Source: an uncultured Aliarcobacter sp.
GTDB lineage: Bacteria > Campylobacterota > Campylobacteria > Campylobacterales > Arcobacteraceae
DNA: 64,000 nucleotides
Direction: 5' to 3'
NCBI GenBank assembly: GCA_963664305.2
Contig: CAXXLV010000001.1
Location: 256,001 to 320,000 of the forward strand
Shown here: positions 46,432 to 63,822 of the stretch, piece after piece
Numbering within the stretch: position 1 is the stretch's first letter
Layout of the letters: each line of letters begins with the position of its first letter
Notes under the pieces: model-generated
Database searches by the model: none
What the model was told of the DNA's origin: nothing
What the model saw: only the letters and a program-made list of their open reading frames with translations
Made by a program: the position numbers and the translations under genes

Positions 46432-47253
46432 TTATTTCTCAGAAAAGAAGTTTAATAATAGATTATTAAATCTGTCTTTATGTTCAATTTGCGTCCAATG
46501 TCCACATTGTCCAAAAACATGTAATTGAGATTTTAATATAAGTTGATTTAATCTAATTGAATTTTGTAAAGGAATAACTTTATCTTCTCTTCCATGTATA
46601 ATTAAAACTTCTTTATCAATTTTTTTGATGTCATTTTCACAACTCATCATAGAATCAACACCATTTTGTCTAGGAGCTGGGAACATTGAACCAAATGATT
46701 CTTGGAATCCTGGTCTAATACTTGCTTCATATCTCATCTTTGCTAAGTCATCAGTTACAATACTTCTATCATAAGCAAAAATATCAAGTAATTCTTTCAT
46801 ATTTTCAATACTTGGAGTATATCCCCATGCTTTATCTAAACCATAAGTCAAATCAAAATAAACCCCAACGGCACCCATTAAAACAACTTTATTAAATCTA
46901 TTTGGATATTTAATAGTTAAAGCTAAAGCTAAAGCTCCACCAAAAGAGTTACCAACTAAATTTGTTTTTTCAATACCTAATGCATCCATTAAATCAATAG
47001 TTTGTTGAACCCATGTATCCATATTATATGTAATACCTTCTGGTCTATCTGAGTATCCAAACCCAACCATATCAGGAGCAATAACTCTGAATTTTTCAGC
47101 TAAAACTGGCATAGTACCTCTCCAATTAGCATAAGCTGAAACACCTGGTCCTGAACCATGAATAAACATAATTGGTTCACCACTACCTAAATCATGATAA
47201 TTTGTATTAAAACTTCCTGTTTTAATATTATTTGCAATTTCTGGATTTGACAT
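46432..47253 (-). CDS. dmpD: 2-hydroxymuconate semialdehyde hydrolase (DmpD/XylF)
   Basis: HGSGPGVSAYANW, GNSFGG nucleophile elbow, HGREDKVIP, CGHWTQIEH. Confidence 0.93.
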   Translation of the reverse strand: MSNPEIANNIKTGSFNTNYHDLGSGEPIMFIHGSGPGVSAYANWRGTMPVLAEKFRVIAPDMVGFGYSDRPEGITYNMDTWVQQTIDLMDALGIEKTNLVGNSFGGALALALTIKYPNRFNKVVLMGAVGVYFDLTYGLDKAWGYTPSIENMKELLDIFAYDRSIVTDDLAKMRYEASIRPGFQESFGSMFPAPRQNGVDSMMSCENDIKKIDKEVLIIHGREDKVIPLQNSIRLNQLILKSQLHVFGQCGHWTQIEHKDRFNNLLLNFFSEK

Positions 47254-47271
47254 ATTTTCTCCTTAATAATT

Positions 47272-48276
47272 TTATAAATTGAACTCTTTTGCTAAGAGTT
47301 CATAAGATTTCATTCTATCTTCAAATGAGTAAGTTACATTTACAATCATAACTTCCTCTACACCATACTCTAAAGCTAATTTTTCTATTTTTTCTTTGCA
47401 CTCTTTTGGAGTTCCTAAAATCATAGAATCTAACGTTTCTTTATAATAAGCTTTATCTTCAAAACTTAATTCTTCATACAATTTTTCAACATCACTTGGG
47501 CTATGTAATCCATCACGAGTAGGATGTCTAAATGCCTGAACTTTCCAATATGTATGCGAACATGCTATCTCTTGCGCTTTTTCTTTTGAATCAGAACAAA
47601 TACAAGCAACAGCAATCATTGCTTTTGGTTTTTTAAAATTTTTAGATGCTTTAAAATTTTTTTTGTAACTATCTATAATTTGTATTGGTCTATCATGAGT
47701 TCCAATAAATAGTGCTAAACAAAAACCAGCACCTAATTTTCCAGCTAAAATACTACTTCCATCACTAGAACCAAGTAAATAAACAGGTGTAGAATTAACA
47801 TTTTTAGGAGATAGATTTACTCCATAAAAATAATCATTTTTAGGAACTTTATCATCCAAATAATTTATAAGATCATAGGCTTTTTTAGTATAATCTCCAC
47901 TATTTGAATTATGTAAGGCACGAGCAGCTAAAAAATTAGCGCCATTTGCTCTTCCAATTCCTAAATCAATTCTATTATTATGTAAAGCACTTAGTGTATT
48001 AAAAGTTTCAGCAACTTTAAATGCACTATAATGATTTAACATAACACCACCACTTCCAACTCTAATAGTTTTAGTTGCATCTGCAATTGTACTTACCATT
48101 ATTTCTGGACATGCACTTGCATATCCAGGAGTGTCATGATGTTCTGCACACCAATATCTGTAATAACCTAATTCTTCACATCTAGTTGCTAGTTTTATAG
48201 TGTCAAATAAGGCTTCTTTATCTTCTTTTCCATCATGTATTGGTGATTGATCAAGTACACTTAATTTTAAATTCAT
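47272..48276 (-). CDS. Luciferase-like (LLM class) flavin-dependent oxidoreductase
   Basis: LSVLDQSP, RYWCAEHH, IRVGSGGVML.HYS..KVAE.F, RIDLGIGRA. Confidence 0.9.
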   Translation of the reverse strand: MNLKLSVLDQSPIHDGKEDKEALFDTIKLATRCEELGYYRYWCAEHHDTPGYASACPEIMVSTIADATKTIRVGSGGVMLNHYSAFKVAETFNTLSALHNNRIDLGIGRANGANFLAARALHNSNSGDYTKKAYDLINYLDDKVPKNDYFYGVNLSPKNVNSTPVYLLGSSDGSSILAGKLGAGFCLALFIGTHDRPIQIIDSYKKNFKASKNFKKPKAMIAVACICSDSKEKAQEIACSHTYWKVQAFRHPTRDGLHSPSDVEKLYEELSFEDKAYYKETLDSMILGTPKECKEKIEKLALEYGVEEVMIVNVTYSFEDRMKSYELLAKEFNL

Positions 48277-48284
48277 AATAAATT

Positions 48285-48476
48285 TTATTTACCTAACTTT
48301 TTGGCACTTTTCCCACCAATACCAAAGTGTTGTTTAGGCATTTCATTTATAATTACCCTAACACTTTCAATTGGTGTATCAAGAGATTCAGCAATCGCAA
48401 TACTTACTTTCTCAATCAATGCCTCTTTTTTTTCGTCACTTCTACCTTCAATAATATTTATTGTTGCAATTGGCAC
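48285..48476 (-). CDS. dmpI: 4-oxalocrotonate tautomerase
   Basis: GTG start, catalytic Pro-1 (MPIA), [14 protein letters not shown]. Confidence 0.95.
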
Positions 48477-48485
48477 GAGTTTTCC

Positions 48486-49274
48486 TTATACAAATTTCAT
48501 TGATAAAGTTCCTAAATCTTGGAACTTAACAGTTACATTATCGCCTTTTTTTACACTCATTGCAGCTGTAATTGCACCTGAAAGGATATACGTTCCAGCT
48601 TTTAGGATTTCACCTCGTTCACTTAACATATTTGCTAACATTGCAATTGCAGTTGCAGGATGTCCTAAAACAGCAGCACCAGCTCCAAGTTGAACAACTT
48701 CTCCATTGATTTCCATTACAACACCTAGAGTTTTTAGGTCTAAGTCTTTAATATCTCTCATTCTTCCACCAGTTACATATCTTGAAGATGAAGAGTTATC
48801 AGCAATTACAGATTTTAAATCAAATTTAAAATCTTTATATCTTGAATCTATAATTTCAACAGCTGGCATAACAAAATCAGTGGCAGCTAATACATCACCA
48901 ATATGACAACCTGGACCTTGTAAATCATCTTTTAAAATGAAAGCTATTTCAGCTTCTACTTTTGGATGAATTAACTCATCAATTTTAATTTCAGCTCCAT
49001 CACCATATGCAAAATAATCAGCTAAATAACCATAACAAGGATTTGGAACACCCATTTGTTTCATTTTAGCTTGAGAAGTAAGACCCATTTTCATACCAAC
49101 AATTTTATGCCCTCTTGCTTCTTTTGCTTTTCGTGCTGTCCATTGAATATCATATGCATCTTCATATGTCATTTCTGGATAATCATCTGTAATTTTAGTA
49201 ATTTCATGTGCATTTAGCTCAGCATCTTCACAATGCTTTGCTAATTTTTCTATTGTTGCTTTATCTAATGCCAT
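48486..49274 (-). CDS. dmpH: 4-oxalocrotonate decarboxylase
   Basis: KMGLTSQAKMKQMGV, HPKVEAEIAF, FDLKSVIADNSSS. Confidence 0.93.
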   Translation of the reverse strand: MALDKATIEKLAKHCEDAELNAHEITKITDDYPEMTYEDAYDIQWTARKAKEARGHKIVGMKMGLTSQAKMKQMGVPNPCYGYLADYFAYGDGAEIKIDELIHPKVEAEIAFILKDDLQGPGCHIGDVLAATDFVMPAVEIIDSRYKDFKFDLKSVIADNSSSSRYVTGGRMRDIKDLDLKTLGVVMEINGEVVQLGAGAAVLGHPATAIAMLANMLSERGEILKAGTYILSGAITAAMSVKKGDNVTVKFQDLGTLSMKFV

Positions 49275-50302
49275 TATATTAATCCTCTCTCTCTTGCCAT
49301 ATCTAATGCTAAGTCTTCAATCATATCTTCTTGACCACCTACCATTCCTCTTCTTCCTAGTTCTAGTAAAAGTGTTCTTGCATCAATTCCATATTTTTCT
49401 TCTGCACGTCTTGCAAATAATAAAAATGATGAATAAACTCCAGCATATCCTAAAGTGATAGAATCCCTTGAAATTCTTGTAGGTTTTCCCATAATTGGTA
49501 ATGCAATATCTTCAGCAGCATCTTCAATTTTATGTAAATCAATTCCAGTTTCAACACCCATTCTATTTAATACTGCAACTAAAACTTCAGTTGCTGTATT
49601 TCCAGAACCTGCTCCAAATCCAGCAAGTGATGCATCAATTCTTGTTGCTCCTGCTTCGATAGCTGCAAGTGAGTTTGCTACACCCATTGACATATTATTA
49701 TGCCCATGGAAACCTAACTCAATATCATCACCAAACTCTTTTTTAAGAATTGCTATTCTTGCACTTACATCATCAGGAAGTAAATATCCAGCTGAATCCG
49801 TTGCATAAATAGTTTTTGCTCCATAAGAAACCATTTTTGCTGCTTCTTGAAGTAATTTTTCAGGAGTTACCATATGAGCCATCATTAAAAAACCAACAGT
49901 ATCTAATCCCATAGAAACCGCTGCTTTTATATGTTGAGCAGAACAATCTGCTTCTGTACAATGAGTTGCAACTCTAACAGTTGAAATTCCTTTTTTAACA
50001 GCTCTTTCTAAATCTTTTACAATTCCAATTCCAGGAAGTAAAAGAGCAGAAATTTTTGCATTTTTTACATTTGATACTGCACACTCAATCCACTCTTCAT
50101 CAGTATGTAAACCATATCCATAATTAAGTGAACTTCCACCTAAACCATCACCATGAGTTACTTCAATCATAGGAACACCAGCTTCATCCATAGCTTTTGA
50201 CATTGCAGCCATTTGGTCTAATGTAAATTGATGTCTAATAGAGTGCATTCCATCTCTTAAAGACATATCATGAATTGTTACTTTTTTACCTTTTAAATTC
50301 AT
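49274..50302 (-). CDS. dmpG: 4-hydroxy-2-oxovalerate aldolase
   Basis: [39 protein letters not shown]; start moved to ATG at 50302. Confidence 0.96.
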
Positions 50303-50303
50303 G

Positions 50304-51188
50304 TTATTCTCCTTTGATTTTTTCAGCCATTTTTTCTGCAATGTTTGTTGCAGCAGCTGTGATAATGTCTAAGTTACCTGCATATTTTGGTAAATAATCT
50401 CCTAATCCTTCAACTTCTAAATAAATAGAAACTTTTTTACCATCAAAAACTGGTCCATTTTTTAATTTATATCCAGGTACAAATTGTTGTACTTTTTTTA
50501 CCATTTCATGAACTGATTTAGTAATTGCTTCTTTGTTTGGTTCAGCAACTGTTTGACAATGAACAGTATCTCTCATCATAAGTGGTGGCTCTGCTGGATT
50601 TAAAATAATAATAGCTTTACCTTTTTTTACATTTCCAACTCTTTCTATTCCAAGTTTTGTTGTTTCTGTAAACTCATCAATGTTTGCACGAGTACCTGGA
50701 CCTGCTGATTTAGAAGCAACTGTTGCAATAATCTCTGCATAATCAACTGCTTGCACAGAAGAAACAGCTGCAACCATAGGAATAGTTGCCTGTCCACCAC
50801 AAGTTACCATGTTTACATTTTGTGTATTTTGTGCTAATAATTCATCAATATTTACTGAAGGTACACAAAATGGACCAATAGCTGCAGGCGTTAAATCAAT
50901 TACCATAACTCCAAGTTCAGCTAATTTCCTATTATTTTCACCATGAACATATGCAGATGTTGCATCAAAAGCAATTTTCACCCCATCTTCTTTGATAAAA
51001 GGAAGTAATCCGTCAACACCTTCATGTGTTGTTTTCATTCCAGCATCTTTTGCTTTTTTTAATCCATCTGAATCTGGGTCAATTCCAACCATCCATAGTG
51101 GATTTAAGATTTCACTTCTTTGAAGTTTATACATTAAATCTGTACCAATATTTCCAGATCCAATTAATGCGCAATTTATTTTCATCAT
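50304..51188 (-). CDS. dmpF: Acetaldehyde dehydrogenase (acylating)
   Basis: [39 protein letters not shown]. Confidence 0.96.
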
Positions 51189-51203: not shown

Positions 51204-51312
51204 GTCCCAATTTTGAAGGGACCTTTTCACTTAACGACTTCTTTTAACACAATGGCAAAGCCATTGTTAAAGAAGCAAACTCTAAAGAGAACAACGAGTT
51301 GTTCTTATCTTT
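51204..51312. repeat. Multi-hairpin intergenic element between dmpE and dmpF
   Basis: Three adjacent inverted repeats: GTCCC/GGGAC, ACAATGGC-AAA-GCCATTGT (extended by CTTCTTT/AAAGAAG), AGAACAAC-GA-GTTGTTCT. Confidence 0.6.
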
Positions 51313-52105
51313 ATACAAATCTACAAGAGGCAGAACCAATTCCACCAATGTTTATAGTCATATTATCACCTGGTTTAATTGTTACCATTGCACATAATGC
51401 ACCAGATAAAATAACCTCTCCAGCTTTTAAACCAACACCAAAAGAACCTAGTGTATTTGCAAGCCATGCTACAGCATTAACAGGACTTCCTAGTGCTGCT
51501 GCACCAGCTCCTGTGTGTAATAATTCTCCATTTCTTTCAAGTGTAATACCACAAGTTGTTAAATCAACATCTCTTGGGTCAACACCTTTTCCACCAAATA
51601 CGATATATCCACAAGAAGCATTATCTGCAACTGTATCTTGAATTTTTATTTTCCAATCTTTAATTCTTGAATCAACGATTTCAAAACATGGCATTACAAA
51701 TTTTGTAGCTCTTAACACATCAGCTGTTGTAACACCTGGTCCCATTAAATCTTCTTTTAAAACGAAAGCTATTTCACCTTCAGCTTTTGGTTGAATCATT
51801 CCTTTTGTTACATTGATTTCATCACCATCAGAATAAATCATATCAGATAATAGGTATCCAAAATCTGGCTGATGAACACCTAACATGTCCATAACAACCT
51901 TTGAAGTTACACCAATTTTTTTACCAATAATTCTTGATTTATCATCTTCCATTCTTCTTTTTAAAAAGTAATGTTGAATAGCATAAGCATCTTCAATTGT
52001 TGCATCAGCTTCTCTTGAAGAAATTGGTTCAATTGTATAATTACCTTTTAAAGCATCATATAGCTCATTTCCATATTTTTCTATTTTTTCATTTGTCATT
52101 GCCAT
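51311..52105 (-). CDS. dmpE: 2-oxopent-4-enoate hydratase
   Basis: GKKIGVTSK.V..MLGV.QPDFG, IQPKAEGEIAF, WKIKIQDTVADNASCG. Confidence 0.94.
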   Translation of the reverse strand: MAMTNEKIEKYGNELYDALKGNYTIEPISSREADATIEDAYAIQHYFLKRRMEDDKSRIIGKKIGVTSKVVMDMLGVHQPDFGYLLSDMIYSDGDEINVTKGMIQPKAEGEIAFVLKEDLMGPGVTTADVLRATKFVMPCFEIVDSRIKDWKIKIQDTVADNASCGYIVFGGKGVDPRDVDLTTCGITLERNGELLHTGAGAAALGSPVNAVAWLANTLGSFGVGLKAGEVILSGALCAMVTIKPGDNMTINIGGIGSASCRFV

Positions 52106-52115: not shown

Positions 52116-53573
52116 TTACATTTTGATACAAATATTTTTTAATTCTGTATAGAATTCTAAAGAGTGATGACCACCTTCTCTTCCAATTCCAGAACCTTTC
52201 ATTCCACCAAATGGTGTTCTTAAATCTCTTAAGAACCATGAATTTACCCATACAATTCCTGAATCAATTTTTGAAGCAACTCTATGAGCTTTATCCAAGT
52301 CTTTTGTAAAAATTGTAGAAGCTAATCCATATTTCGTATCATTTGCCATTCTAATTGCTTCTTCTTCCGTATCAAATGGTTGAACATGACAACAAGGTCC
52401 AAATACTTCCTCTTTTACTACAGTTGCAGTTTCTGCTAAACCTGTCCAAATAGTTGGTTCTACCCAGAAACCATCTTTTAAATCACCTTCCATTTTAGGA
52501 GCACCACCACCTAAAACAACATTTGCACCCTCTTTTCTTGCAATTTCATAATATTCTAATACTTTATCTCTATGTGCAGCACTTACAACTGGTCCCATAT
52601 CAACTGACTCATCATGTTGAACACCTACTTTTAATTTTGAAGCAGATTCTTTTAATTTTGCTAAAAATTCATCAAAAATTGGTCTTTGAACATAAACTCT
52701 TTCTGTTCCTAAACAAACTTGACCTGAGTTAGCAAAACAAGATCTTGTAGTTTCATGAACAGCTTTTTCCATGTCACAATCAGCAAAAATAATAGCTGGG
52801 TTTTTTCCACCAAGTTCTAAAGATACATCTCTTACACCTTTTGAACATGCTTGCATAATCATTTCACCAGTTTTTGTTTCACCAGTAAATGTTATTGCAT
52901 CAATATCTGGATGAGAAGTAATTAAATTACCAGTAATTGAACCTTTTCCTTGAACAACATTATAAGCACCAGCTGGAACTCCAACTTTACTCATAACTTC
53001 ACCTAAAAGTGATGTTGTTGTAGGAGTAACTTGAGAAGGTTTAACAACAACTGTATTACCACAAGCCATTGCTGGACCTACTTTCCAAGTCATTAATAAT
53101 AAAGGTAAATTCCATGGAGAGATTACACCAATAACACCTTTTGGTTTTCTCATAGAATAATTAAATGCAGTTTTTCCATCTGGAGTGTCCATTCTATAAG
53201 CTTCATCTGCAACAGCCTTCATTGTGTCAGCAAATACTTTGAAGTTTGCAGCTCCTCTTGGAATATCAATATGTCTTGCGATTGAGTAAGGTTTTCCTGT
53301 ATCTAAACATTCTGCCTCTAAAAAATCATTAAATCGTCTATCAATCTCATTTGCAATTTCATACATCATAGCAATTCTGTCATTTAATTTCATTTGCCCC
53401 CATTCTCCTGTAAGTGCTGCTTTAGCAGCAGCAATTGCAGCGTTTACTTCAGGCTCTCTTCCAAGTGCTACTTTTGAAATTATTTCAGCAGTTGCAGGGT
53501 TATAATTATCAAAAAATTCTCCACATTGAGAATCCATAAATTGTCCATTAATATAGTGTTGTACTTTTTTCAT
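52116..53573 (-). CDS. dmpC: 2-hydroxymuconate semialdehyde dehydrogenase
   Basis: HIDIPRGAANF, PWNLPLLLMTWK, LELGGKN, GQVCLGTER, WVNSWFLRDLRT. Confidence 0.95.
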   Translation of the reverse strand: MKKVQHYINGQFMDSQCGEFFDNYNPATAEIISKVALGREPEVNAAIAAAKAALTGEWGQMKLNDRIAMMYEIANEIDRRFNDFLEAECLDTGKPYSIARHIDIPRGAANFKVFADTMKAVADEAYRMDTPDGKTAFNYSMRKPKGVIGVISPWNLPLLLMTWKVGPAMACGNTVVVKPSQVTPTTTSLLGEVMSKVGVPAGAYNVVQGKGSITGNLITSHPDIDAITFTGETKTGEMIMQACSKGVRDVSLELGGKNPAIIFADCDMEKAVHETTRSCFANSGQVCLGTERVYVQRPIFDEFLAKLKESASKLKVGVQHDESVDMGPVVSAAHRDKVLEYYEIARKEGANVVLGGGAPKMEGDLKDGFWVEPTIWTGLAETATVVKEEVFGPCCHVQPFDTEEEAIRMANDTKYGLASTIFTKDLDKAHRVASKIDSGIVWVNSWFLRDLRTPFGGMKGSGIGREGGHHSLEFYTELKNICIKM

Positions 53574-53998
53574 TATTTTAATCCTATCTTTTCAATTGCA
53601 TATTTTGCACATATAATATCTTCTTCTTCAGTTCCACCAGAAACACCAATTGCCCCAACTTTTACGTTTTCATCATCAAAAATTGGTAAACCACCACCAA
53701 AAGGAATTAATCTTTCTCTGTTTGAAAAACCTTGTTCCAAATGAGGCATTTGTTTAAAAATCTCTGTCCATTGTGCAGTTGGAAAACCAAAACTTGCACT
53801 CGTAAAAGCTTTGTTTTTTGCTATATCTATCGAATGGATAAATGAATTTTCCATTCTTAAAAAAGCCATTTCTAAACCTTTATTATCAACTACGCTCACA
53901 TTTATTGATATGTTTAATTCTTCAGCCTTTTTAACTGCAAAAAGACAAGCTTCCATAGAAGCCTGTCTTGATATAGATTTTTCTGTAATTATCTTCAT
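53573..53998 (-). CDS. GlcG/HbpS-like heme-binding protein (the NahX-type ORF of meta operons)
   Basis: VSVVD..G...FLRM, A.NKAFT, FGGGLP, GAIGVSGGTEEED. Confidence 0.88.
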   Translation of the reverse strand: MKIITEKSISRQASMEACLFAVKKAEELNISINVSVVDNKGLEMAFLRMENSFIHSIDIAKNKAFTSASFGFPTAQWTEIFKQMPHLEQGFSNRERLIPFGGGLPIFDDENVKVGAIGVSGGTEEEDIICAKYAIEKIGLK

Positions 53999-55380: not shown

Positions 55381-56328
55381 TCAAATTTTTTTGTTTTTTT
55401 CTTCAAGAACTTCAATAAGTTCCTTAACAGCGTTAATTGATTCACTAAATTGTGACTGTTGTTCTTTAGTTAAATCCAGTTCAATTATCTTCTCAACACC
55501 ATCTTTGCCTAAAATTACAGGAATTCCTGCAACAACATTTTCATATCCATACTCACCATTTAACATCACAGAACATGGATAAATTTCTTTTTTATCATTT
55601 AATATTGCATCTATCATTACGGCTGTTGAATTAGCAGGTGCAAAGTAAGCAGAACCTGTTTTTAGTAAATTTACTATTTGTGCTCCACCATTTTTTGTTT
55701 GATTGATAATTTCATCTATATCCTCTTTAGATAAAACCTCATCCAAAAATTTATTTGATACTTTTGAGTAAGAAACTAAAGGAACCATTTCATTCCCATG
55801 TCCACCCATCACAGAAGCAGCTATCTCATTTTTTTTAGAATTTAATTTTTCATATATAAAATGGCTCATTCTTGCACTATCTAAAATTCCAGCCATTCCA
55901 AAAATTTTATTTCTTGGCCATTTTGAAACTTCAAGTGCTTTATAAACCATTGCATCTAAAGGATTTGATACAATGATAATTATTGCATTTGGGTTATATT
56001 TAATAACATCACTTATCAATGATTCAATAATCCCTGCATTTATATGTAATAAATCATCTCTACTCATTCCAGGTTTTCTAGCAATTCCAGCAGTAATAAC
56101 AACAACATCACAATCATAAAAATCTTCACTTTTAGATATTGCAAATATTTTTGCTTTATCATTTGTTGCAAAAGTAGCTTGTGAGATATCTAACATCATT
56201 GCAGTAGTTAAATCTTCACGAATATCTTTTAGTAATATTTCTGAACAAATATTTTTTAAAGCTAATGTATAAGCTAAAGTTGCACCAACATTCCCAACAC
56301 CAATTATTCCAACTCTTTTACTCTCCAC
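55381..56328 (-). CDS. mdh: Malate dehydrogenase (LDH-like)
   Basis: GVGNVG, TAGIARKPGMSRDDL, VSNPLD, LDSAR, GGHG, GSAYFAPA. Confidence 0.92.
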   Translation of the reverse strand: MESKRVGIIGVGNVGATLAYTLALKNICSEILLKDIREDLTTAMMLDISQATFATNDKAKIFAISKSEDFYDCDVVVITAGIARKPGMSRDDLLHINAGIIESLISDVIKYNPNAIIIIVSNPLDAMVYKALEVSKWPRNKIFGMAGILDSARMSHFIYEKLNSKKNEIAASVMGGHGNEMVPLVSYSKVSNKFLDEVLSKEDIDEIINQTKNGGAQIVNLLKTGSAYFAPANSTAVMIDAILNDKKEIYPCSVMLNGEYGYENVVAGIPVILGKDGVEKIIELDLTKEQQSQFSESINAVKELIEVLEEKNKKI

Positions 56329-56354: not shown

Positions 56355-56384
56355 GTTATATAAATCCAATCGCTTTCTAATCGC
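56355..56384 (-). promoter_or_regulatory. Direct-repeat box GCGAT-N6-GCGAT plus -10 (TATAAC) upstream of mdh
   Basis: Plus strand ATCGC 56380-84 and 56369-73; GTTATA 56355-60 (8-nt spacer). Confidence 0.75.
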
Positions 56385-56444: not shown

Positions 56445-57698
56445 ATGGCAAAAAAATTTTCACTTACTTTTATAATAATAGGAATAATTGGAGTAATTTC
56501 TCTGGATAAATTAATAGAGATATTTTCTAAAAACAATGAATTGTCTCAAGAAGGTCCATTTTCAATTGCAATCTTTTTTATGATTACAACAGGAATTATT
56601 TTATACTTCATAATACATCATATGGAAAAAGTAATTGAAAAAATAGATAAATCATATAATGAATTAAAAAGAAAAGATAAAAGTAGAATTGCACCTTATG
56701 AATTTTCCCTTGATAATTCTGTTGATTCTATTCACTGGTTAAATTTAGATGGAAAATTTTTATATGTAAATGAATCAACATGTAGAATGGAAGGTTATAC
56801 TAAAGAAGAATTTAAAGATATGTATTTGGAAGATATTGACCCATCATTTGATAGAGAAGGTGCTAAAAAATGTATGCAAGATATAAAAAATACTGAAAAT
56901 TGGAGATTAGAATCTACTCATAAAAGAAAAGATGGAAGTATATATCCTGTAGAAGTATCTGGACATGCATTTATTTTTGAAGGACAAGAATATATTTGTG
57001 CTTTTGCAAGAGATATCACTCAAAGATTAGAAGATAAAAACAATATAACAAAAATAAATCAAGAACTACAAAAATCTTTAGCAGAAAAAGAGATGTTATT
57101 AAAAGAGATTCATCATAGAGTAAAAAATAATATGGAAATCATTTCTTCTTTATTAAATATGCAAGCAAGAAGAAGTGATGATATAAATTTCAAAAATGCA
57201 ATGAAACAAAGTAGAAGTAGAATTCTTACAATGGCTCTTGTTCATGAATTTTTATATTTAGGTGAAAATTTAGCCTACATAAATATTCAAGAATATATAA
57301 AAAAATTAGTTCAAGATATAAAAGAATTGTACATTTCTCAAAATACAAATTTAGAAGTTGATTTACATATTGATAATTTAATATTTTCAGCAAATAGATG
57401 TATTCAAGTAGGAATGATTTTACACGAATTATGCGTAAATTCTTTAAAATATGCTTTTGAAGAAAATAGAAAAAATCTTTTATGTATTCATATAAATAAA
57501 ATCAATGATGATATTAATATAAAAATTAGAGACAATGGAGATAAAGAAATTGATATAACTAATTTACAAAAAAGGGACTCTATTGGATTACAATTAATTT
57601 ATTCAATAGTTGATTTTCAATTGCATGGAAAATTAGAATTTAAAATAAATAGAGGATTGGAATGTAATATCACATTCCCAGAAAAGGAAGAGATATGA
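56445..57698 (+). CDS. Sensor histidine kinase: 2 TM, PAS, HisKA_2, HATPase
   Basis: PAS (DGKFLYVN...GYTKEEF...KRKDGSIYPVEV...ARDIT), LLKEIHHRVKNN H-box, ELCVNSLKYAF N-box. Confidence 0.9.
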   Translation: MAKKFSLTFIIIGIIGVISLDKLIEIFSKNNELSQEGPFSIAIFFMITTGIILYFIIHHMEKVIEKIDKSYNELKRKDKSRIAPYEFSLDNSVDSIHWLNLDGKFLYVNESTCRMEGYTKEEFKDMYLEDIDPSFDREGAKKCMQDIKNTENWRLESTHKRKDGSIYPVEVSGHAFIFEGQEYICAFARDITQRLEDKNNITKINQELQKSLAEKEMLLKEIHHRVKNNMEIISSLLNMQARRSDDINFKNAMKQSRSRILTMALVHEFLYLGENLAYINIQEYIKKLVQDIKELYISQNTNLEVDLHIDNLIFSANRCIQVGMILHELCVNSLKYAFEENRKNLLCIHINKINDDINIKIRDNGDKEIDITNLQKRDSIGLQLIYSIVDFQLHGKLEFKINRGLECNITFPEKEEI

Positions 57699-58453
57699 TA
57701 AAAACAAAAATACTTATTGTAGAAGATGAACCAATAATTGCTTTAAATTTACAAGAAACTCTAGAAGAATTAGGTTATGAAACTTTTGGTATTACTAATA
57801 ATAGATGTAGAACTTTAGAATTACTAAAAAGTGAAGAAATACCTGATTTAATATTAATGGATATTTATTTACAAGGCCCTACAACTGGAATACAATTAGC
57901 TAAAGAATTAAAAAATTCATTACCAAATGTTCCTATAATCTTTTTAACAGCAAATTCTGAATATGCAACAATCAAAGAAGCTTCAGAAACTTTTGCTTAT
58001 GGATATTTAGTAAAACCTTATAAAAAAAATACTCTGTTTGCGACTATTGAATTAGCATTAAAAAAAGCAAAAGAAGAACTTACTCAGAAATTAGATTTTG
58101 AGTCATTAAAAAATATAAACAAAACTTTAGAGCATAAATTAACACTGAATCAAGAATCAAAGTCAAGAACAATTAAACTCAAATATGGTTATTTATTTGA
58201 TAAAGAAAAAGAAATTTTGTATTATGGAGATGAAGTAGTAAAACTAACAAATAAAGAAACAGATATCATCAAAGCTTTATGTAAAACTCCTGGTCAAAAG
58301 ATTTCTCAAGAACAATTAGAATATGCAATTTGGCAAAATGAACCAGCTGGTTATGCTGCTTTTAGGTCTGTATTATTCAGACTTAGAAATAAAATACATA
58401 AAGATTTAATAACTAATCAAAATAACACAGGATATAGAATAGAACTTTTATAA
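57695..58453 (+). CDS. Response regulator, receiver + OmpR/PhoB-type winged helix
   Basis: IVEDE, LMDI, FLTA, YLVKP; C-terminal LTNKE...EQLEYAIW...RSVLFRLRNKI...GYRI; overlaps kinase stop (ATGA). Confidence 0.9.
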   Translation: MIKTKILIVEDEPIIALNLQETLEELGYETFGITNNRCRTLELLKSEEIPDLILMDIYLQGPTTGIQLAKELKNSLPNVPIIFLTANSEYATIKEASETFAYGYLVKPYKKNTLFATIELALKKAKEELTQKLDFESLKNINKTLEHKLTLNQESKSRTIKLKYGYLFDKEKEILYYGDEVVKLTNKETDIIKALCKTPGQKISQEQLEYAIWQNEPAGYAAFRSVLFRLRNKIHKDLITNQNNTGYRIELL

Positions 58454-58460: not shown

Positions 58461-59267
58461 TTATATCAATGAATAAATCATTTTTATACTAAGAGCTAAA
58501 GGTATTAAAGAGAATAATTTTTTCATCAAATCTACATTTATTTTATGAACTAACATAACTCCAACTGGAGCAGTTAAATAACTTGCAAAGGCAACACAAA
58601 TAAGTGCAGGGATTGAAACAAAACCTAAAGTATAAGTCTCCATTGAAGTATGACTCCAACCGTTTATTATATATCCTATAGTTCCAGAAATTGCAATTGG
58701 TAAACCAATAGCTGAAGATGTAGCAATTGCTTTTTTGATATCAATATTTTGAATTAATAAATATGGAACACTCATTATTCCTCCACCAATAGAAACAAGT
58801 GAAGATAAAGCTCCAATTGCACTACCTGATAAAATATGTGTTTTTGCTGTGAAAATTTTATTTTCTGGTTTTGGTTTTTTACCAATAAACATCATAACGG
58901 CTGAATAAAACATAAAACAAGCAAAGATTATAGATAAATAAAATGAGTCTAATTTTGAAGCTATAAATGTGGCTAAAAAAGTTCCTATAATAATACCTGG
59001 AACCATCATTTTAACAACATCCCAAACTATTGCTTTTTTCTTTTGTTGAGCTTTGATACTTGAAATTGAAGTAATAATTATAATAGCCATTGAAGTTCCT
59101 AAAGCTAAGTGAACAACGCTATTTTCAGCTATTGTATTATTTGCTAAAAACATAGCTGTTAAAACAGGAACAATAATTCCTCCACCACCTATTCCAAAAA
59201 GTCCAGAAACTACTCCAACAAATGAACCTAAGGCTAAAAAATAAATAATTGTTTGAATATCTAACAT
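58461..59267 (-). CDS. TauE/SafE (TSUP) family membrane exporter
   Basis: GLFGIGGGGIIVP, ALGTS, SIGGG...VP, AIATS. Confidence 0.9.
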   Translation of the reverse strand: MLDIQTIIYFLALGSFVGVVSGLFGIGGGGIIVPVLTAMFLANNTIAENSVVHLALGTSMAIIIITSISSIKAQQKKKAIVWDVVKMMVPGIIIGTFLATFIASKLDSFYLSIIFACFMFYSAVMMFIGKKPKPENKIFTAKTHILSGSAIGALSSLVSIGGGIMSVPYLLIQNIDIKKAIATSSAIGLPIAISGTIGYIINGWSHTSMETYTLGFVSIPALICVAFASYLTAPVGVMLVHKINVDLMKKLFSLIPLALSIKMIYSLI

Positions 59268-59283: not shown

Positions 59284-59316
59284 AAAAAAAGATACAACTT
59301 TATAGTTGTATCTTTT
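59284..59316 (-). terminator. Intrinsic terminator after dmpP
   Basis: AAAAGATACAACT-N4-AGTTGTATCTTTT perfect stem followed by a T-run on the minus strand. Confidence 0.8.
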
Positions 59317-60373
59317 AGATAGATTTAAAAAGTGGACTTTTTATTTTATCGCTGTGCAGGTCAGCTTTTGAGAAGAATTTTTCAGTATGTATATCTTTTT
59401 CAAATAATCTTCCTTGCATAAGTGCAGTAATACAAGCTTCACTCATCATTGGAGGTCCGCATAAATATGCTTTATTTCCTGCAAATTGATTATTATAAAG
59501 TTTTTTAGCTACATCATTTGTAAATCCAATTTCACCAGCCCATGATGGATTTTCATTATTTGATAAAACTGGAACATACCTAAAATTATCATATTTCTTT
59601 TCTAAATCTCTGAACATATCAGCATAATAAAGTTCTTCTTCATTTCTTGCACCATGAAACAAAGTAATTGGTTGAGTACAACCATTTTCTAACTCATCTA
59701 AAATCATAGATTTTGGACTTGAAAGTCCCGAACCACCTGCAAAAAATATCATTGGTTTTTGTGCTGATTTTTTTACAAAAAATCTTCCAAAAGGACCAGT
59801 GATTTTTCTTCTATCTCCAACTTTTACATTTTGATGAATCCAAGGTGTTGCTTCACCATCAGGAATAAGTCCAATATTTAATTCAATTACTTTTCCAGTA
59901 CTTGGTTGATTCGCTAGTGAAAATGCTCTTGGTTCATCAAATCCTGGAACATGATAATTTATATATTGACCAGCTTGAAAATCTAACTCTTCATCAAGTT
60001 CAATCCAAAGTCCTAAGATTCTTGGAGTTAACATCTCTCTTTTGATAACTGTTCCCCAAACATCTTTAACTTTTATACTTCTAGCATCAACATCCACATC
60101 AATATCAGCTTCAATAACAACATCATTAATTGCTGTTGCTGTACAAGCCAAACAAAAACCATCTTCTCTTTCACTCTCCATCAAAGCAAAATATGAAGCA
60201 TCACCTAAATCAACCTCTCCTTCTAAAACCTCAACTTTACAAGTTCCGCAAAGTCCGTGATTACAAGCATGAGGAAGATAAACCCCTTGTCGTAGAGCTG
60301 CATCAAGAAGGGTTTGCCCTTCTTGAACTTCTACTATATCACCTGTTGGTTCTATTTCTAATTTACAAGCCAA
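59315..60373 (-). CDS. dmpP: Phenol hydroxylase reductase P5
   Basis: CNHGLCGTC [2Fe-2S], FQAGQY, RAFSLAN, GGSGLSSPKSM, YLCGPP. Confidence 0.95.
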   Translation of the reverse strand: MACKLEIEPTGDIVEVQEGQTLLDAALRQGVYLPHACNHGLCGTCKVEVLEGEVDLGDASYFALMESEREDGFCLACTATAINDVVIEADIDVDVDARSIKVKDVWGTVIKREMLTPRILGLWIELDEELDFQAGQYINYHVPGFDEPRAFSLANQPSTGKVIELNIGLIPDGEATPWIHQNVKVGDRRKITGPFGRFFVKKSAQKPMIFFAGGSGLSSPKSMILDELENGCTQPITLFHGARNEEELYYADMFRDLEKKYDNFRYVPVLSNNENPSWAGEIGFTNDVAKKLYNNQFAGNKAYLCGPPMMSEACITALMQGRLFEKDIHTEKFFSKADLHSDKIKSPLFKSI

Positions 60374-60374: not shown

Positions 60375-60734
60375 TTATGCTCCTACTTTACCTATCAAAT
60401 CTGGTGTTTTAAAAGTGATAAATGATTTATGTCCAACACCATTTTCTTTTAAACTTTTTGAAAAATCAGGTGTTATAACTTTTCCATCAACTTCCCAAAT
60501 AACTTCTGTTTTATCAAAATCTAAATCTTTAAAATCTAGTTCAATTTTATATGTTACTGGAATTAAATCAGAAATTATCGCACCAAAAGGCATTTCAGGA
60601 GGTAATGGAAATGCTCTTGGAGAGCTAACTACTCTATGTCCATACCAATATAGATACACTAATTGATTTCCATGAAATTTATCTACACTATCTTTCATTA
60701 TGATTGGATATTCTCCAATTGATTGAATTGCCAT
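60375..60734 (-). CDS. dmpO: Phenol hydroxylase gamma subunit P4
   Basis: FHGNQLVYLYW..H, PPEMPFG, PDFSKSLKENGVGHKS. Confidence 0.93.
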   Translation of the reverse strand: MAIQSIGEYPIIMKDSVDKFHGNQLVYLYWYGHRVVSSPRAFPLPPEMPFGAIISDLIPVTYKIELDFKDLDFDKTEVIWEVDGKVITPDFSKSLKENGVGHKSFITFKTPDLIGKVGA

Positions 60735-60745: not shown

Positions 60746-62260
60746 TTATTTATTTCTTAATTTGTTCCACATAGCTTCATCAGGAGAACCTATATAATCC
60801 ATATTATCTACACCATGTTCTATTTTGTACCATTTTAAAACTTCTGGAATAGTAGCTCCACCACAGTTTCCTTGGAATATTTGATGTGGAGGTAACCAAG
60901 CTTGAACATATTTTTCAGGCTGTGCATCAAATATATCTTTACATCCATCAGAACAAGTATGGAAAATTTCTCCATTATATTCAGATGTTTTATGTGTATA
61001 AACATGTGGATTTCCACCTTCGATATCTGTAAATCCTAATGGAATTTGACAAGTTTGACAAATCAAAGGTAAAGTTTCAGAATAATATCTTTCCCCTTTT
61101 TCTTGTAAAGCTATATATCTTTCAAACATTGGTCTATAATATTTATCAAAAGTATCTGGATATTTTTGACTTAACCAATTCATTTTTTCTTCGTCTGGCA
61201 TCCAAATATGAATATTTGCAGCATTTGTATGATTATAGAAAATATTCCATACTTGATGAGATAAATGCCCTTTTTCAGCAATAATTGTATTTACTAATTT
61301 TTCAGGAATTTTAATTCCATATTTTTCTAAATCTTTATATAAGGCCATACAGTTTTGTTCGATATATAATTCAACTGCTTCTGCCCAAGATGTTGGAGAG
61401 TTAGGTAGCATATAATCCATCATCATAGCTACAAGACCTAACATTCTGTAACCTCTCCATAACCATTTATCCATCCATTTTTGAACAATTGGAACATTAT
61501 CTGCATCTTGTTCTAACATGAATTTAATAGCTGATAATCCTAAAGTCATATGTCTTGATTCATCACTTTGTGCAGAAAAACCAAATGTAACTGTTGCCAT
61601 ATCTCCATTATAAGCAGCTCCACTCATAAATGGAACAAATAATAAACTTGTTAATACAAATTCAAAAGAGAATGAAATAGCTGTTAAATATTCAAAAGGT
61701 CCTGCTGTACTTGCATCATCTCCAAATGATTTTGGAACTGATAAATACCAAACTCTATCATGCATTGTTCTAAAATTATGAAAACCATTAAAATATTTAT
61801 TATAATGACTCATTGTATGTACTTGAGTTTGGAAATGTCTTAACTCATCAATAGCTTGCATTTGGCATGCAATTGAAGCACCCTCACCTTTAAAAGCACG
61901 TGCTGCGTGAGAAAAACCTTGAACAACTTTATATTCAAGTGGTGTTACACCTGTTAAAAATAGTTTTAGTGCATTTACATATCTTGCATCTGAAATATTT
62001 TTTTGTGCATTGTTTTGAGCAAAAGCATCAATAATTGAATAAAGTTTTTTATCTTTTTCAGCTTGTAATTTCCAATAAGAATCCATTGTCATTCTAAATG
62101 GATCTTCCCATGCTTCCCAATCATGAATTTTCAATCCTTCCATTTTTAAAAAAGGAAAAACATCTTCTTCTTTTTGGTAAGTTGGATCCCAACCAAGTCT
62201 AGTCATATATTTATATGCATCTTTTTTATTTAATCTTTTTTTTCTAGGTTCTACACTCAT
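60746..62260 (-). CDS. dmpN: Phenol hydroxylase alpha (diiron) subunit P3
   Basis: WEDPFR, two ExxH motifs (DELRH, DESRH), HDRVWYLSVPKSF, YHS-like CSDGC. Confidence 0.97.
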   Translation of the reverse strand: MSVEPRKKRLNKKDAYKYMTRLGWDPTYQKEEDVFPFLKMEGLKIHDWEAWEDPFRMTMDSYWKLQAEKDKKLYSIIDAFAQNNAQKNISDARYVNALKLFLTGVTPLEYKVVQGFSHAARAFKGEGASIACQMQAIDELRHFQTQVHTMSHYNKYFNGFHNFRTMHDRVWYLSVPKSFGDDASTAGPFEYLTAISFSFEFVLTSLLFVPFMSGAAYNGDMATVTFGFSAQSDESRHMTLGLSAIKFMLEQDADNVPIVQKWMDKWLWRGYRMLGLVAMMMDYMLPNSPTSWAEAVELYIEQNCMALYKDLEKYGIKIPEKLVNTIIAEKGHLSHQVWNIFYNHTNAANIHIWMPDEEKMNWLSQKYPDTFDKYYRPMFERYIALQEKGERYYSETLPLICQTCQIPLGFTDIEGGNPHVYTHKTSEYNGEIFHTCSDGCKDIFDAQPEKYVQAWLPPHQIFQGNCGGATIPEVLKWYKIEHGVDNMDYIGSPDEAMWNKLRNK

Positions 62261-62281
62261 AATATCTCCCTTATTTTTGTA

Positions 62282-62557
62282 TTAGTTATTCCAATAAACG
62301 ATGAATTCATCATCTGTTTCTTCTACTTGTCCACCTAAAGAAATAAGTACTAATTGTAATTCTTCAGGATCCCAATCTCTTCCTAAAGCTTCTGATACTG
62401 TAGAAGCTTTTACAGTAATTTTTTCTGGTCTCTCAATTTGAATCATTGCTGGTTTATTAGTAATTATTACACCTTCATTATCTTCTTTGATTGCTTCTGC
62501 TATTGTTCTTCCATCTTCTGTAGATTGAAGACATAATAATGCTATACTTGATGACAT
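62282..62557 (-). CDS. dmpM: Phenol hydroxylase effector/coupling protein P2 (MmoB/DmpM)
   Basis: I.EAI..DN, PAMI.I, LGRDWD..ELQ..LISLGGQVEETDD. Confidence 0.93.
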   Translation of the reverse strand: MSSSIALLCLQSTEDGRTIAEAIKEDNEGVIITNKPAMIQIERPEKITVKASTVSEALGRDWDPEELQLVLISLGGQVEETDDEFIVYWNN

Positions 62558-62581
62558 ACGTTTCCCTTTTATTATTAATTT

Positions 62582-63574
62582 TTATAAATTTATTTCACAG
62601 TTTTTTAATCTAACTATTAACTCTGTTTTAACATTAGATATAAGTTCTTTAGGATTGTTTGAAAATGAAGCTAAAGGTTCCATCGCATTTTCCATAATCT
62701 CTATGTCTTCTTTTACCCAACTAGTTAATAAATCTCTATTTTCAGTTGATTCTTTTGCCATAACTTTTATAACACTATCTAACCATTTAACTGTTTCTTC
62801 ATACCATGAAACGATAAATTCATTTAACATAGAAATAGTCATTTCATCATTTTGCGCTAACTCTTTTGAGAATTCATTAATCATTAAAGGAATTACAAAA
62901 CCATCAAAAACAACATTTTGTTTAACAAATAATCTAATTGGATCTTTTTCAACAAAAGAATCTTCAACTGCTTTTCTTAAACCTTGCCAATTAGGACAAT
63001 TTAACCAAGCATCTTTTCCAGCTTCTAATTTTGAAACATCATTATCAGAAAGAAGTAGAATTATTTTTGTTATGTGTTGAGCCATTCCAAGTCTATCTTC
63101 AGCTTGAAATAAACAAGCACTCATCATAGCCGTCCCATAAACTCTATCTACAATACAAAGATTATTCATATTTGCACCATACTCATAATGTCTTAATGGA
63201 GTTAAAAAATCATATACCTTTTGTAAATTATCTTTTTTTATAAAATTAACTAAACCTCTTTTTTCAACAAATTCAAAACTTTGTTCATTTGCAGCATTTT
63301 GAGAAGCTCTTGTTGATACATAAGACATATAATGAAATTTTCTTGGATCCAATAAGTCATACCAATCATTCATTTTGATTTTTGTTCTATTTTTATCATA
63401 TATTTCAAATTCAGGTTCCCATTGTGGCCTATAATGAAAATTCTCAGTTGGTTGTGCATCATACATAGCTTCTTCATATCTTGAAGCTGGTCTATCTTCA
63501 CCTAATCTTTGTGCAACATGACCAAAAGTATGTCTTATTGGTTCTATTTCAACACTAGCTATATTTAATTCCAT
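62582..63574 (-). CDS. dmpL: Phenol hydroxylase beta subunit P1
   Basis: P.RHTF.HVA.R.G..PASRYEE..YD.Q...NFHYRP.W.P; PLRHYEYGANMNN; WQGLR. Confidence 0.95.
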   Translation of the reverse strand: MELNIASVEIEPIRHTFGHVAQRLGEDRPASRYEEAMYDAQPTENFHYRPQWEPEFEIYDKNRTKIKMNDWYDLLDPRKFHYMSYVSTRASQNAANEQSFEFVEKRGLVNFIKKDNLQKVYDFLTPLRHYEYGANMNNLCIVDRVYGTAMMSACLFQAEDRLGMAQHITKIILLLSDNDVSKLEAGKDAWLNCPNWQGLRKAVEDSFVEKDPIRLFVKQNVVFDGFVIPLMINEFSKELAQNDEMTISMLNEFIVSWYEETVKWLDSVIKVMAKESTENRDLLTSWVKEDIEIMENAMEPLASFSNNPKELISNVKTELIVRLKNCEINL

Positions 63575-63588
63575 ATTTTCTCCTTAGT

Positions 63589-63822
63589 TTAATTTAACCC
63601 ATATTTCCAATTTTCATTGTCAATTAATAATTCATCTTCTTGTTCTTTTGTAAAAAACGATACTCTATTATTTTGACAAAATTCAATGAAAGCTTTGTAT
63701 GGTAAAAGTAATTCAACATTCATTACAGCTTCACCTACTGCAAAATTAAATTCAACAAATCCATTATCTTTTATATTTATGATTTGTACAAATTTTTTTT
63801 CATTTGGCATAAGTTCATACAT
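63589..63822 (-). CDS. dmpK: Phenol hydroxylase assembly protein P0
   Basis: FVEFNFAVG...VELLLP..AF.EFC..NRV...WKYG. Confidence 0.9.
   Translation of the reverse strand: MYELMPNEKKFVQIINIKDNGFVEFNFAVGEAVMNVELLLPYKAFIEFCQNNRVSFFTKEQEDELLIDNENWKYGLN

Follow-up and report, generated by a model that had tools for sequence, protein, structure and literature searches.

A phenol-degradation gene block in an uncultured Aliarcobacter and its predicted control by paired two-component systems and a direct-repeat operator

We analysed a 64,000-nucleotide stretch of DNA from an uncultured Aliarcobacter sp. (the window, G000:C1:256001-320000; the genome comprises 2.78 Mb in two contigs) that carries the six genes of a multicomponent phenol hydroxylase, dmpKLMNOP, together with nine genes of the lower meta-cleavage pathway. 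These genes occupy positions 46432-63822 on the minus strand, and the ORF list, Pfam and NCBIfam agree that their ORFs are intact. The explanation that best joins the enzymes with the regulatory genes and sites around them is that they belong to a catabolic block of ~28 kb that is probably functional and serves the aerobic degradation of phenol and methylphenols. What appears to be new, as far as the sequence can tell, is the control of this block: paired PAS-HisKA_2/OmpR-type two-component systems and a private direct-repeat operator would unite oxygenases, porin, transporters and chemoreceptor, in place of the sigma-54/DmpR arrangement.

Results

The phenol hydroxylase and the lower pathway

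Every ORF that an earlier note on the window had named was recovered where it had been placed, on the minus strand, and matched the expected family in Pfam and NCBIfam (Table 1). A residue check bore out the motifs that the note had read, namely the two ExxH motifs of DmpN, the Met-Pro start of DmpI and the GNSFGG motif of the hydrolase, and all 22 of the 22 ORFs scanned in the cluster are intact with their catalytic residues in place. The gene order K-L-M-N-O-P, including the small DmpK and an MmoB/DmpM-type effector, is that of a multicomponent phenol hydroxylase. DmpN matched the phenol hydroxylase alpha subunit (PHN) of PDB 2INN with 753 bits over residues 6-502, compared with ~120-137 bits (maximum 136.5) for toluene monooxygenases, and its diiron ligands (E109, E139-x-x-H142, E200 and E234-x-x-H237) align with those of PDB 2INN. 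Cys37, Cys42, Cys45 and Cys77 are present in DmpP. No Rieske family was found by Pfam among the 22 ORFs scanned, which fits the separation of this enzyme from the four-component toluene monooxygenases.

Toluene-2-monooxygenases belong to the same six-component group as phenol hydroxylases, and this kinship is one reason to ask whether the hydroxylase might act mainly on benzene or toluene, in the manner of a toluene/benzene-2-monooxygenase, or on another aromatic, with phenol merely an intermediate. A second diiron monooxygenase beside the cluster in G005, L020, L027 and L036, and the occurrence of near-identical DNA in tar-pit and oil metagenomes, would agree with such a role. We nevertheless consider it unlikely here, because the phenol hydroxylase of PDB 2INN is by far the closest solved structure and because PF02332 matches in this genome are confined to DmpN and DmpL, leaving no second monooxygenase.

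Turning to the lower pathway, DmpB, DmpC, DmpE, DmpF, DmpG and DmpH all exceed their NCBIfam equivalog cut-offs, and DmpB matched the solved structures PDB 5ZNH and 1MPY with 422.8 and 267.9 bits, respectively. In addition to the tautomerase model in Table 1, DmpI exceeds the cut-off of NF002571 (66.5 bits, cut-off 55) and falls below that of the DmpI-specific NF041920 (50 bits, cut-off 70); it starts with Met-Pro-Ile and keeps Pro1, Arg11, Arg39 and Phe50, which we take to be the functional residues of the tautomerase. The listed TTG start of dmpG overlaps dmpF, and the real start probably lies further downstream, the TIGR03217 alignment opening at residue 19. The serine motif of the hydrolase, GNSFGG, lies at residue 101.

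Experiments in a relative bear on the same pathway. In Arcobacter sp. CAB, according to the available passages of Carlstrom et al. 2013 (PMC3656443), catechol supports growth and is oxidised with transient formation of 2-hydroxymuconic semialdehyde (A375 and LC-MS), and it induces the dioxygenase, dehydrogenase, hydratase, aldolase, decarboxylase and tautomerase genes (locus tags …5480, 5500, 5510, 5530, 5540, 5550 and 5570). We infer from the order of these tags that it fits the gene order found here, the gaps matching the HbpS-like gene, dmpF and the luciferase-like gene. CAB shares with the present strain its family and its lower-pathway genes; the oxygen in CAB comes from chlorite dismutation, and the available passages mention no phenol hydroxylase, regulator or operator (PMC3656443).

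Because of the strong homology and the experiments in CAB, the enzymes very likely have the following functions. DmpKLMNOP would act as a soluble diiron multicomponent phenol hydroxylase that converts phenol and cresols to catechol and methylcatechols, whose ring would be opened by DmpB, kept active by the small ferredoxin. The ring-cleavage product would then enter the 4-oxalocrotonate branch (DmpC, DmpI and DmpH) or, in the case of the ketone-type products of 3-methylcatechol, the hydrolytic branch by way of the CumD-like hydrolase, and DmpE, DmpG and DmpF would complete the route to pyruvate and acetyl-CoA.

Paired two-component systems in place of a DmpR-type activator

The earlier note had missed the regulators of the block, two pairs of sensor kinase and response regulator, of which HK2/RR2 lies divergent from dmpK and HK1/RR1 between the hydroxylase and meta-cleavage units. 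The kinases (417-433 amino acids) have two transmembrane helices joined by a ~16-residue loop, one cytoplasmic PAS domain, a HisKA_2 domain and an ATPase domain. HK1 and HK2 are 61% identical, with the greatest divergence in the PAS domain, and RR1 and RR2 are 71% identical, with nearly the same DNA-binding domains.

The HK2/RR2 pair stands divergently beside dmpK in 7 of 7 fetched regions of relatives and in 10 of 12 Arcobacteraceae loci, and in none of 68 loci from outside the Campylobacterota. Within the family, HK2 orthologues of at least 57% identity were found in 36 of 36 DmpN-positive and 0 of 148 DmpN-negative genomes, a co-occurrence that overstates independence, the family genomes being kin. 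Three DmpN-negative genomes carry kinase paralogues, at 37% identity only, and 13 of the 36 DmpN-positive genomes have two kinase copies, as does the present one. Among the best 120 database relatives, the named ones all come from Arcobacteraceae except for one metagenome-assembled genome (MAG) labelled Erysipelotrichia, and none has a specific function name.

Pfam found no XylR_N/V4R sigma-54 activator in the block, and the -24/-12 element GG-N10-GC is present on neither strand of the eight intergenic regions of the block. In contrast, a XylR_N/sigma-54 activator lies at most 8 kb 5' of dmpK in 12 of 22 proteobacterial outgroup loci (32 of 37 candidate ORFs scanned). We rejected the explanation, suggested by another Arcobacter, that the host is devoid of sigma-54 and DmpR hence unworkable in it: the genome encodes sigma-54 (rpoN), and its sole true sigma-54 activator, which is GAF-type, lies ~415 kb away.

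A direct repeat confined to the block

A 15-bp direct repeat with 11-bp spacing, TCGC-N7-TCGC, was spotted in the divergent intergenic regions. It occurs four times in the window compared with 0.03 times in shuffles. The 2.78-Mb genome as a whole has six copies, none of them outside the intergenic regions of this block, and these exact sites precede the porin, the ferredoxin-dmpB unit, the malate-dehydrogenase (MDH) paralogue, dmpK, the chemoreceptor and the SDR gene. When a weight matrix trained solely on 49 distinct sites of relatives was run on this genome, seven block sites, at 19.1-27.4 bits, outranked all other genome positions, the next of which scored 14.9. Given the operator-like site 5' of the gene, the prephenate-dehydratase (PDT) paralogue also appears to be part of the phenol regulon. 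The sites are antisense to the following gene, oriented toward their targets, and lie 42-80 bp from the start codon; the SDR site overlaps the listed ORF start, which is probably too early.

The arrangement is conserved. A site lies 43-118 bp 5' of dmpK in 19 of 19 related loci, other genera included, with more sites at the same other promoters. The porin-side operator is kept at the PDT/porin junction in G006, G010, G002, G005 and G084 and 5' of the porin gene in G012 and G054. OmpR/PhoB-type regulators usually bind direct repeats of ~11 bp near the -35 element, and the repeats in the block lie close to -35 elements when the sequence is read by eye; a sigma-70 promoter scan was uninformative in AT-rich DNA, giving 105 sites compared with 107 in shuffles. 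Overall, we think it likely from these sequence patterns that the two-component systems act through the repeat.

Two further observations concern the repeat. TCGC-N11-TCGC occurs seven times genome-wide, compared with 0-2 times for other spacings except N7. The 70 repeats counted in 1.26 Mb of GC-rich outgroup loci do not allow a comparison and were set aside.

The second monooxygenase of G005 (L108-L110, joined 33611-37077) has alpha and beta subunits that are 24-26% and 20-21% identical to DmpN and DmpL, respectively, and the same was seen in L020, L027 and L036. TCGC-N7-TCGC stands 53 bp 5' of this toluene-monooxygenase-like enzyme in G005, which suggests that some relatives can use benzene or toluene as entry compounds, controlled in the same way.

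Distribution in the family and in the environment

Of the 184 species genomes of the family, 36 have DmpN; these represent 9 of 22 genera and include 8 of the 43 genomes from the host's own genus. DmpN was found in 0 of 377 genomes of 13 other Campylobacterota families (phylum-wide sample of 401). The earlier note had described such pathways as best known from other groups and not from microaerophilic Campylobacterota. With DmpN in a fifth of the family's species and the lower pathway demonstrated in Arcobacter sp. CAB (PMC3656443, in the passages available), the rarity so implied was overstated. Relatives with a name belong to Aliarcobacter, Arcobacter, Halarcobacter and Poseidonibacter.

Quick maximum-likelihood trees, the check that the earlier note had proposed for DmpN and DmpB, returned the family as monophyletic. 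In the DmpN tree, the 20 family rows form one clade (support 99) with one long-branched Sphingobacterium row nested in it, and in the DmpC and DmpB trees, the 13 family rows each form one side of a branch (support 100 and 98, respectively). The idea that a second Arcobacteraceae group (DmpN 70-72% and DmpK/L/M/O 44-54% identical) had its hydroxylase genes replaced from outside the family is unsupported, since the 20 family DmpN rows form one clade. The nested row comes from L028 (8207-9700), a record of Sphingobacterium sp. (Bacteroidota), which carries dmpKLMNOP with DmpN inside one Arcobacteraceae subclade and no kinase or regulator beside it; this cluster may have been transferred out of the family, or the contig may be a contaminant.

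We also matched the 9.9-kb stretch at positions 54000-63900 against public sequencing runs, in which uncovered parts in runs X4, X19 and X21 carry no weight as absence. The habitat statements draw on the runs so matched, with 19 other listed runs set aside. A tar-pit metagenome covers 30 of 30 bins of the stretch at ~97-99% identity (one piece of 1216 bases has 9 differences), and an oil metagenome covers positions 54000-59626 at a depth of ~500-1300. Contigs from two metatranscriptome libraries (compost and wastewater) match parts of dmpP, dmpO, dmpN, dmpK, dmpL and tauE at 90-100% identity, although DNA carry-over is possible and the contigs come from relatives as well as from this strain.

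Age, mobility and integrity of the block

The earlier note had inferred long residence from A/T-ending codons and from the lack of mobile elements. The GC3 of the cluster genes (0.087-0.188) indeed falls within the distribution of the genome (mean 0.116, S.D. 0.026, 2110 ORFs of at least 150 amino acids), and their raised G+C is due to the first and second codon positions, a pattern shared with rpoC and fusA. The absence of insertion sequences and integrases was likewise upheld, no integrase or transposase family being found in the ORFs scanned between rpsL and rpoC; there is no tRNA in the window, and the features of an integrase-borne island were not found, flanking repeats not having been searched for. 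Because of the GC3 values, the one-clade trees and the family-specific regulators, long residence is supported for the family. It is not supported for the present chromosome position, as the gap that houses the block is variable, other genomes of the genus carry the block elsewhere and G011 shows a deletion there.

The block lies in the gap between rpsL and rpoC, which measures 40.5 kb here compared with 5.7 kb in G002. This position is common only to G010; in G002, G006, G012 and G005, the stretch fetched around the cluster contains neither rpoC nor rpsL. In G011, the flanking proteins are 95-99% identical to those of this genome and DmpN is missing. What stands in its place (L131 10954-19364) is a PDT paralogue, an RR2 fragment (93%), a chemoreceptor, an SDR gene and a leuB pseudogene, with everything from porin to HK2 gone, and this gap is a deletion scar. 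Gene-by-gene identities to this genome are mosaic: those of G005 are 98% at dmpF and dmpG and 75% at dmpN, and those of G006 are 95-97% at dmpN, dmpP and dmpD and 81-87% at dmpB, dmpF and dmpG, which points to recombination among family members. The block would be old in Arcobacteraceae, whose members may have gained, lost, moved and recombined it as a whole.

The two leuB copies of this genome (L003 5854-6921 and G000:C2:378603-379667) are 97.7% identical, and the block-side copy in G011 is a pseudogene with three in-frame stops. A copying of the block from the native leuB locus is unsupported: the G002 flank past leuB maps elsewhere than the second leuB copy here, and genomes that lack the cluster have leuB without SDR or regulator neighbours.

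A recent import of the cluster from Pseudomonadota would accord with the variable gap, with the presence of DmpN in so few genomes of the genus and with the closest DmpN from outside the family, which belongs to marine Pseudomonadota MAGs (66-70% identity). We regard it as very improbable, as GC3 equals that of the genome, DmpN, DmpC and DmpB are monophyletic, and the regulators and the operator are family-specific and occur in other genera. A silent or decaying cluster strikes us as just as improbable. The deletion and the leuB pseudogene in the near relative G011 could be taken as signs of decay, as could one in-frame TAA codon each in DmpN and the HK2 orthologue of G048 (contig C9), codons that could reflect decay, sequencing error or read-through. 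In this genome, no scanned ORF is broken or has lost its catalytic residues, the genes are highly conserved among relatives, and contigs from RNA libraries match them.

Organization of the block and accessory genes

The cluster does not form a single uninterrupted operon, as the hydroxylase and meta-cleavage units are separated by a permease, a two-component system and the MDH paralogue; the earlier note had left the interrupting and accessory genes unmentioned. Of 19 related Arcobacteraceae loci, 9 have the TauE permease gene, compared with none of 68 outgroup loci. The MDH copy on contig 2, 64% identical to the block paralogue, is likely the housekeeping one. Among relatives, the block paralogue is 59-79% identical, far below its neighbours in the fetched genome regions, and it accompanies the second two-component system (HK1/RR1) in 4 of 5 related loci that have that system. 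Homologues of the HbpS/GlcG-like gene are frequent in proteobacterial meta operons and hold the same position in many outgroup loci, and the MsnO8-type gene is found in 5 of 19 related loci. The meta unit extends beyond the hydrolase to an ApbA-type reductase, an AEC transporter and two membrane proteins, the longer of which (291 amino acids) has a 63%-identical paralogue elsewhere in the genome.

On the far side of the meta unit, the porin has a signal-peptide-like N terminus and its gene adjoins the cluster in relatives; the PDT paralogue, which also flanks the cluster in relatives, is 51% identical to the other copy in the genome. The rest of the rpsL-rpoC gap (window 30250-39600) holds genes for an MFS transporter, a DUF2971 protein, a Cache-domain fragment, a CbiMNQO-type transporter with DUF4198, a ParA-like ATPase with a 90-amino acid partner, a glyoxalase, a second MFS transporter and a LysR regulator, and the content of the gap varies among relatives.

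Table 1. Features of the block. Positions are those of the window unless given as L003, which is G000:C1:319001-335000 and reaches beyond the window end.
Feature	Position	Strand	Match or remark
Operator-like site, one mismatch	39765..39789	-	LysR<>PDT region, 46 bp 5' of PDT paralogue; 20.0 bits, sixth-best matrix score in genome
PDT paralogue	39835..40845	+	Pfam PDT; NCBIfam 208.9 bits, cut-off 219
Operator	40850..40864	-	80 bp 5' of porin gene
Outer-membrane porin, candidate uptake channel	40944..42137	+	NCBIfam NF033923 48.5 bits (below cut-off of 150), weak Opr-family match
Multi-pass membrane protein	42154..43200	+	No Pfam match
Two overlapping membrane-protein genes, 137 and 291 amino acids	43298..44583	-	No family match; tail of meta operon
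AEC-family (Mem_trans) transporter	44586..45461	-	Pfam PF03547; conserved in relatives
ApbA/PanE-family oxidoreductase	45479..46417	-	Pfam; TIGR00745 216.1 bits, cut-off 141.35
Meta-cleavage-product hydrolase (DmpD role, CumD-like)	47253..46432	-	CumD PDB 2D0D 405.7 bits, residues 1-272
MsnO8-family luciferase-like oxidoreductase	48276..47272	-	TIGR03558 335.1 bits, cut-off 166.95
dmpI, 4-oxalocrotonate tautomerase	48476..48285	-	GTG start; Pfam PF01361; TIGR00013 87.4 bits, cut-off 56.9
dmpH, 4-oxalocrotonate (2-oxo-3-hexenedioate) decarboxylase	49274..48486	-	TIGR03218 460.2 bits, cut-off 350.55
dmpG, 4-hydroxy-2-oxovalerate aldolase	50341..49274	-	TIGR03217 522 bits, cut-off 286
dmpF, acetaldehyde dehydrogenase (acylating)	51188..50304	-	TIGR03215 459.3 bits, cut-off 282.25
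dmpE, 2-oxopent-4-enoate hydratase	52105..51311	-	TIGR03220 411.5 bits, cut-off 408.8
dmpC, 2-hydroxymuconic semialdehyde dehydrogenase	53573..52116	-	TIGR03216 801.6 bits, cut-off 693.25
HbpS/GlcG-like gene	53998..53573	-	Pfam PF03928
dmpB, catechol 2,3-dioxygenase	54948..54001	-	TIGR03211 408.8 bits, cut-off 320.2
2Fe-2S plant-type ferredoxin (DmpQ/XylT role)	55282..54965	-	Pfam Fer2; Cys37, Cys42, Cys45, Cys77 present
Operator	55352..55366	+	70 bp 5' of ferredoxin/dmpB operon; 25.7 bits; conserved there in relatives
MDH-family paralogue	56328..55381	-	NF004863 388.8 bits
Operator	56370..56384	+	MDH<>HK1 divergent region; conserved in G010, G084, L016, L018
Sensor kinase HK1	56445..57698	+	Pfam: one PAS, HisKA_2, ATPase domain; two transmembrane helices
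Response regulator RR1	57695..58453	+	Receiver PF00072 and OmpR/PhoB winged helix PF00486 (Trans_reg_C)
TauE/SafE (TSUP) permease	59267..58461	-	Pfam PF01925; 3' of dmpP
Terminator-like hairpin	59287..59316	-	13-bp stem, then T run; directly 3' of dmpP
dmpP, reductase (2Fe-2S, FAD, NAD)	60373..59315	-	Pfam Fer2, FAD_binding_6, NAD_binding_1
dmpO, hydroxylase gamma subunit	60734..60375	-	Pfam PF04663
dmpN, hydroxylase alpha subunit, diiron centre	62260..60746	-	Pfam PF02332 and YHS
dmpM, effector protein	62557..62282	-	Pfam PF02406
dmpL, hydroxylase beta subunit	63574..62582	-	Pfam PF02332
dmpK, assembly protein	63822..63589	-	Pfam PF06099
Operator	63886..63900	+	dmpK<>HK2 divergent region, 64 bp from dmpK start; 27.4 bits, top score in genome
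Sensor kinase HK2	Starts at 63958 (cut at 64000); L003 958-2259	+	Divergent from dmpK
Response regulator RR2	L003 2256-3014		PF00072 and PF00486
Chemoreceptor	L003 3027-4910	-	Beyond window end
Two operators	L003 4954 and 4988		Chemoreceptor/SDR region
SDR gene	L003 4997-5839		Beyond window end
Second leuB copy	L003 5854-6921		Followed by YCII gene and 127-amino acid ORF
rpoC	L003 7736-12262	-	Edge of rpsL-rpoC gap

Discussion

We propose that control of the block lies with membrane-anchored PAS-HisKA_2 kinases that it encodes itself, HK2 and an additional paralogue, HK1, rather than with a sigma-54 activator of the DmpR type. HK2 and HK1 would phosphorylate the OmpR-type regulators RR2 and RR1, which would bind the 11-bp-spaced direct repeat, consensus AATCGCAnAtTAATCGCA, overlapping the -35 elements of seven transcription units: the PDT paralogue; the porin; the unit running from the ferredoxin gene and dmpB through the hydrolase gene to the transporters; the MDH paralogue; dmpK-P; the chemoreceptor; and SDR-leuB. 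Sensing would most likely be of the phenolic substrate or of catechol, by the cytoplasmic PAS domain or the membrane helices, although our confidence that either compound is the signal stops a little short of even.

Comparison with known systems places the enzymes on familiar ground. The dmp operon of plasmid pVI150 in Pseudomonas sp. CF600 has the order dmpKLMNOPQBCDEFGHI and is accompanied by dmpR. The same enzymes are found here (six hydroxylase components, ferredoxin, catechol 2,3-dioxygenase and both lower branches, with the CumD-like hydrolase in the putative DmpD role). The present genes, however, form two separate units with the hydrolase gene last and not after dmpC, have neither DmpR nor a -24/-12 element, and lie on the chromosome of an AT-rich host. 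DmpN shares its diiron ligands with the phenol hydroxylase PHK-P of Pseudomonas sp. OX1 (PDB 2INN, 2INP and 3U52); the other subunits are far less conserved than DmpN, with DmpK, DmpL, DmpM and DmpO 26-52% identical to proteobacterial ones, and host and regulation differ from those of OX1. The hydrolase matches CumD (PDB 2D0D and 1IUN), a 2-hydroxy-6-oxo-7-methylocta-2,4-dienoate hydrolase, over its full length; CumD serves a cumene pathway, whereas the hydrolase here would take the place of DmpD/XylF. Overall, the enzymes are ordinary members of known families in a host family with a proven lower pathway, and their presence is less surprising than the earlier note held.

The nearest parallel to the regulation is found in TodS/TodT and TmoS/TmoT of Pseudomonas, in which a PAS kinase and a response regulator control an aromatic oxygenase operon with no one-component activator. 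TodS, a double kinase, is large and soluble and combines two PAS domains, two HisKA/ATPase modules and an internal receiver, and TodT is NarL/FixJ-type. The likeness lies in the two-component control of an aromatic oxygenase operon, a control that is predicted here. The kinases of the block, unlike TodS, are small proteins anchored in the membrane, each having a single PAS domain and HisKA_2, and their regulators are OmpR/PhoB-type.

Several points weigh against the catabolic and regulatory scheme outlined above. The hydrolase is below the cut-off of every NCBIfam equivalog, in a library that may hold no DmpD model, and the hairpin after dmpP makes co-transcription of tauE with dmpP uncertain. 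The profile search that found no XylR_N in the genome also gave no positive among its 14 control genomes; the same Pfam model matched 12 outgroup regulators. L020 and L023 have no kinase or regulator in the upstream DNA examined. The binding of RR1 and RR2 to the repeat follows from co-location, co-occurrence and the habit of the OmpR family, and another DNA-binding protein could be responsible. Finally, phenol was absent from the donors tested with strain CAB, as given in the available passages of that paper (PMC3656443).

A different regulatory scheme, in which the signal for the two-component systems is oxygen, redox state or membrane stress rather than the aromatic substrate, or in which another protein binds the repeat and induction comes from elsewhere, deserves mention as well. 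The PAS domains give weak matches to models of oxygen, redox and light sensors (FixL, NifL, DosP and LOV kinases; NCBIfam), the pathway needs oxygen, its hosts live at oxic-anoxic interfaces, and a LysR gene at 38755-39582 adjoins one site. We rate this scheme as rather unlikely. The LOV motif is absent from the kinase sequence, and two paralogous kinases that differ in their PAS domains are more easily explained by two chemical signals than by a single physical one. As for the LysR gene, no homologue lies near the cluster in the 7 fetched regions or the 12 loci, while the kinase and regulator track DmpN throughout; moreover, LysR proteins usually bind dyads, unlike the direct, 11-bp-spaced repeat of the block.

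Returning to control by a chemical signal through the repeat, we tentatively picture a self-contained phenol module of the Arcobacteraceae. A kinase would sense phenolics or catechol directly, and an OmpR-type regulator with its private repeat would switch on oxygenases, porin, transporters and chemoreceptor, while the second pair would provide a separate signal for the ring-cleavage operon. Such a module may represent a class of aromatic sensors independent of sigma-54. The predicted switch has a compact design that comprises one kinase, one regulator and a 15-bp operator, and its clean genome-wide footprint makes it easily tested; should phenols truly be its signal, it would offer a sigma-54-independent biosensor part.

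In the full-text literature (subscription journals and supplements lying outside this scope), we found no paper with a phenol hydroxylase of an Arcobacter relative in its title or abstract, and none that combines the terms 'multicomponent phenol hydroxylase', 'histidine kinase' and 'response regulator'. The main text of two family-wide genome comparisons leaves aromatic, catechol and phenol unmentioned. Arcobacter relatives, which abound in sewage, oil-field waters and marine oxic-anoxic interfaces, are usually seen as consumers of acetate, sulfide or other intermediates. A study of a phenol-fed reactor, in the portion available, likewise treats its enriched Arcobacter as an intermediate consumer (PMC10432169). 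With a full route from phenol to acetyl-CoA encoded in a fifth of the family's species genomes, members of the Arcobacteraceae may, on the tentative picture given above, be unrecognised primary degraders of phenol in oil, tar and wastewater.

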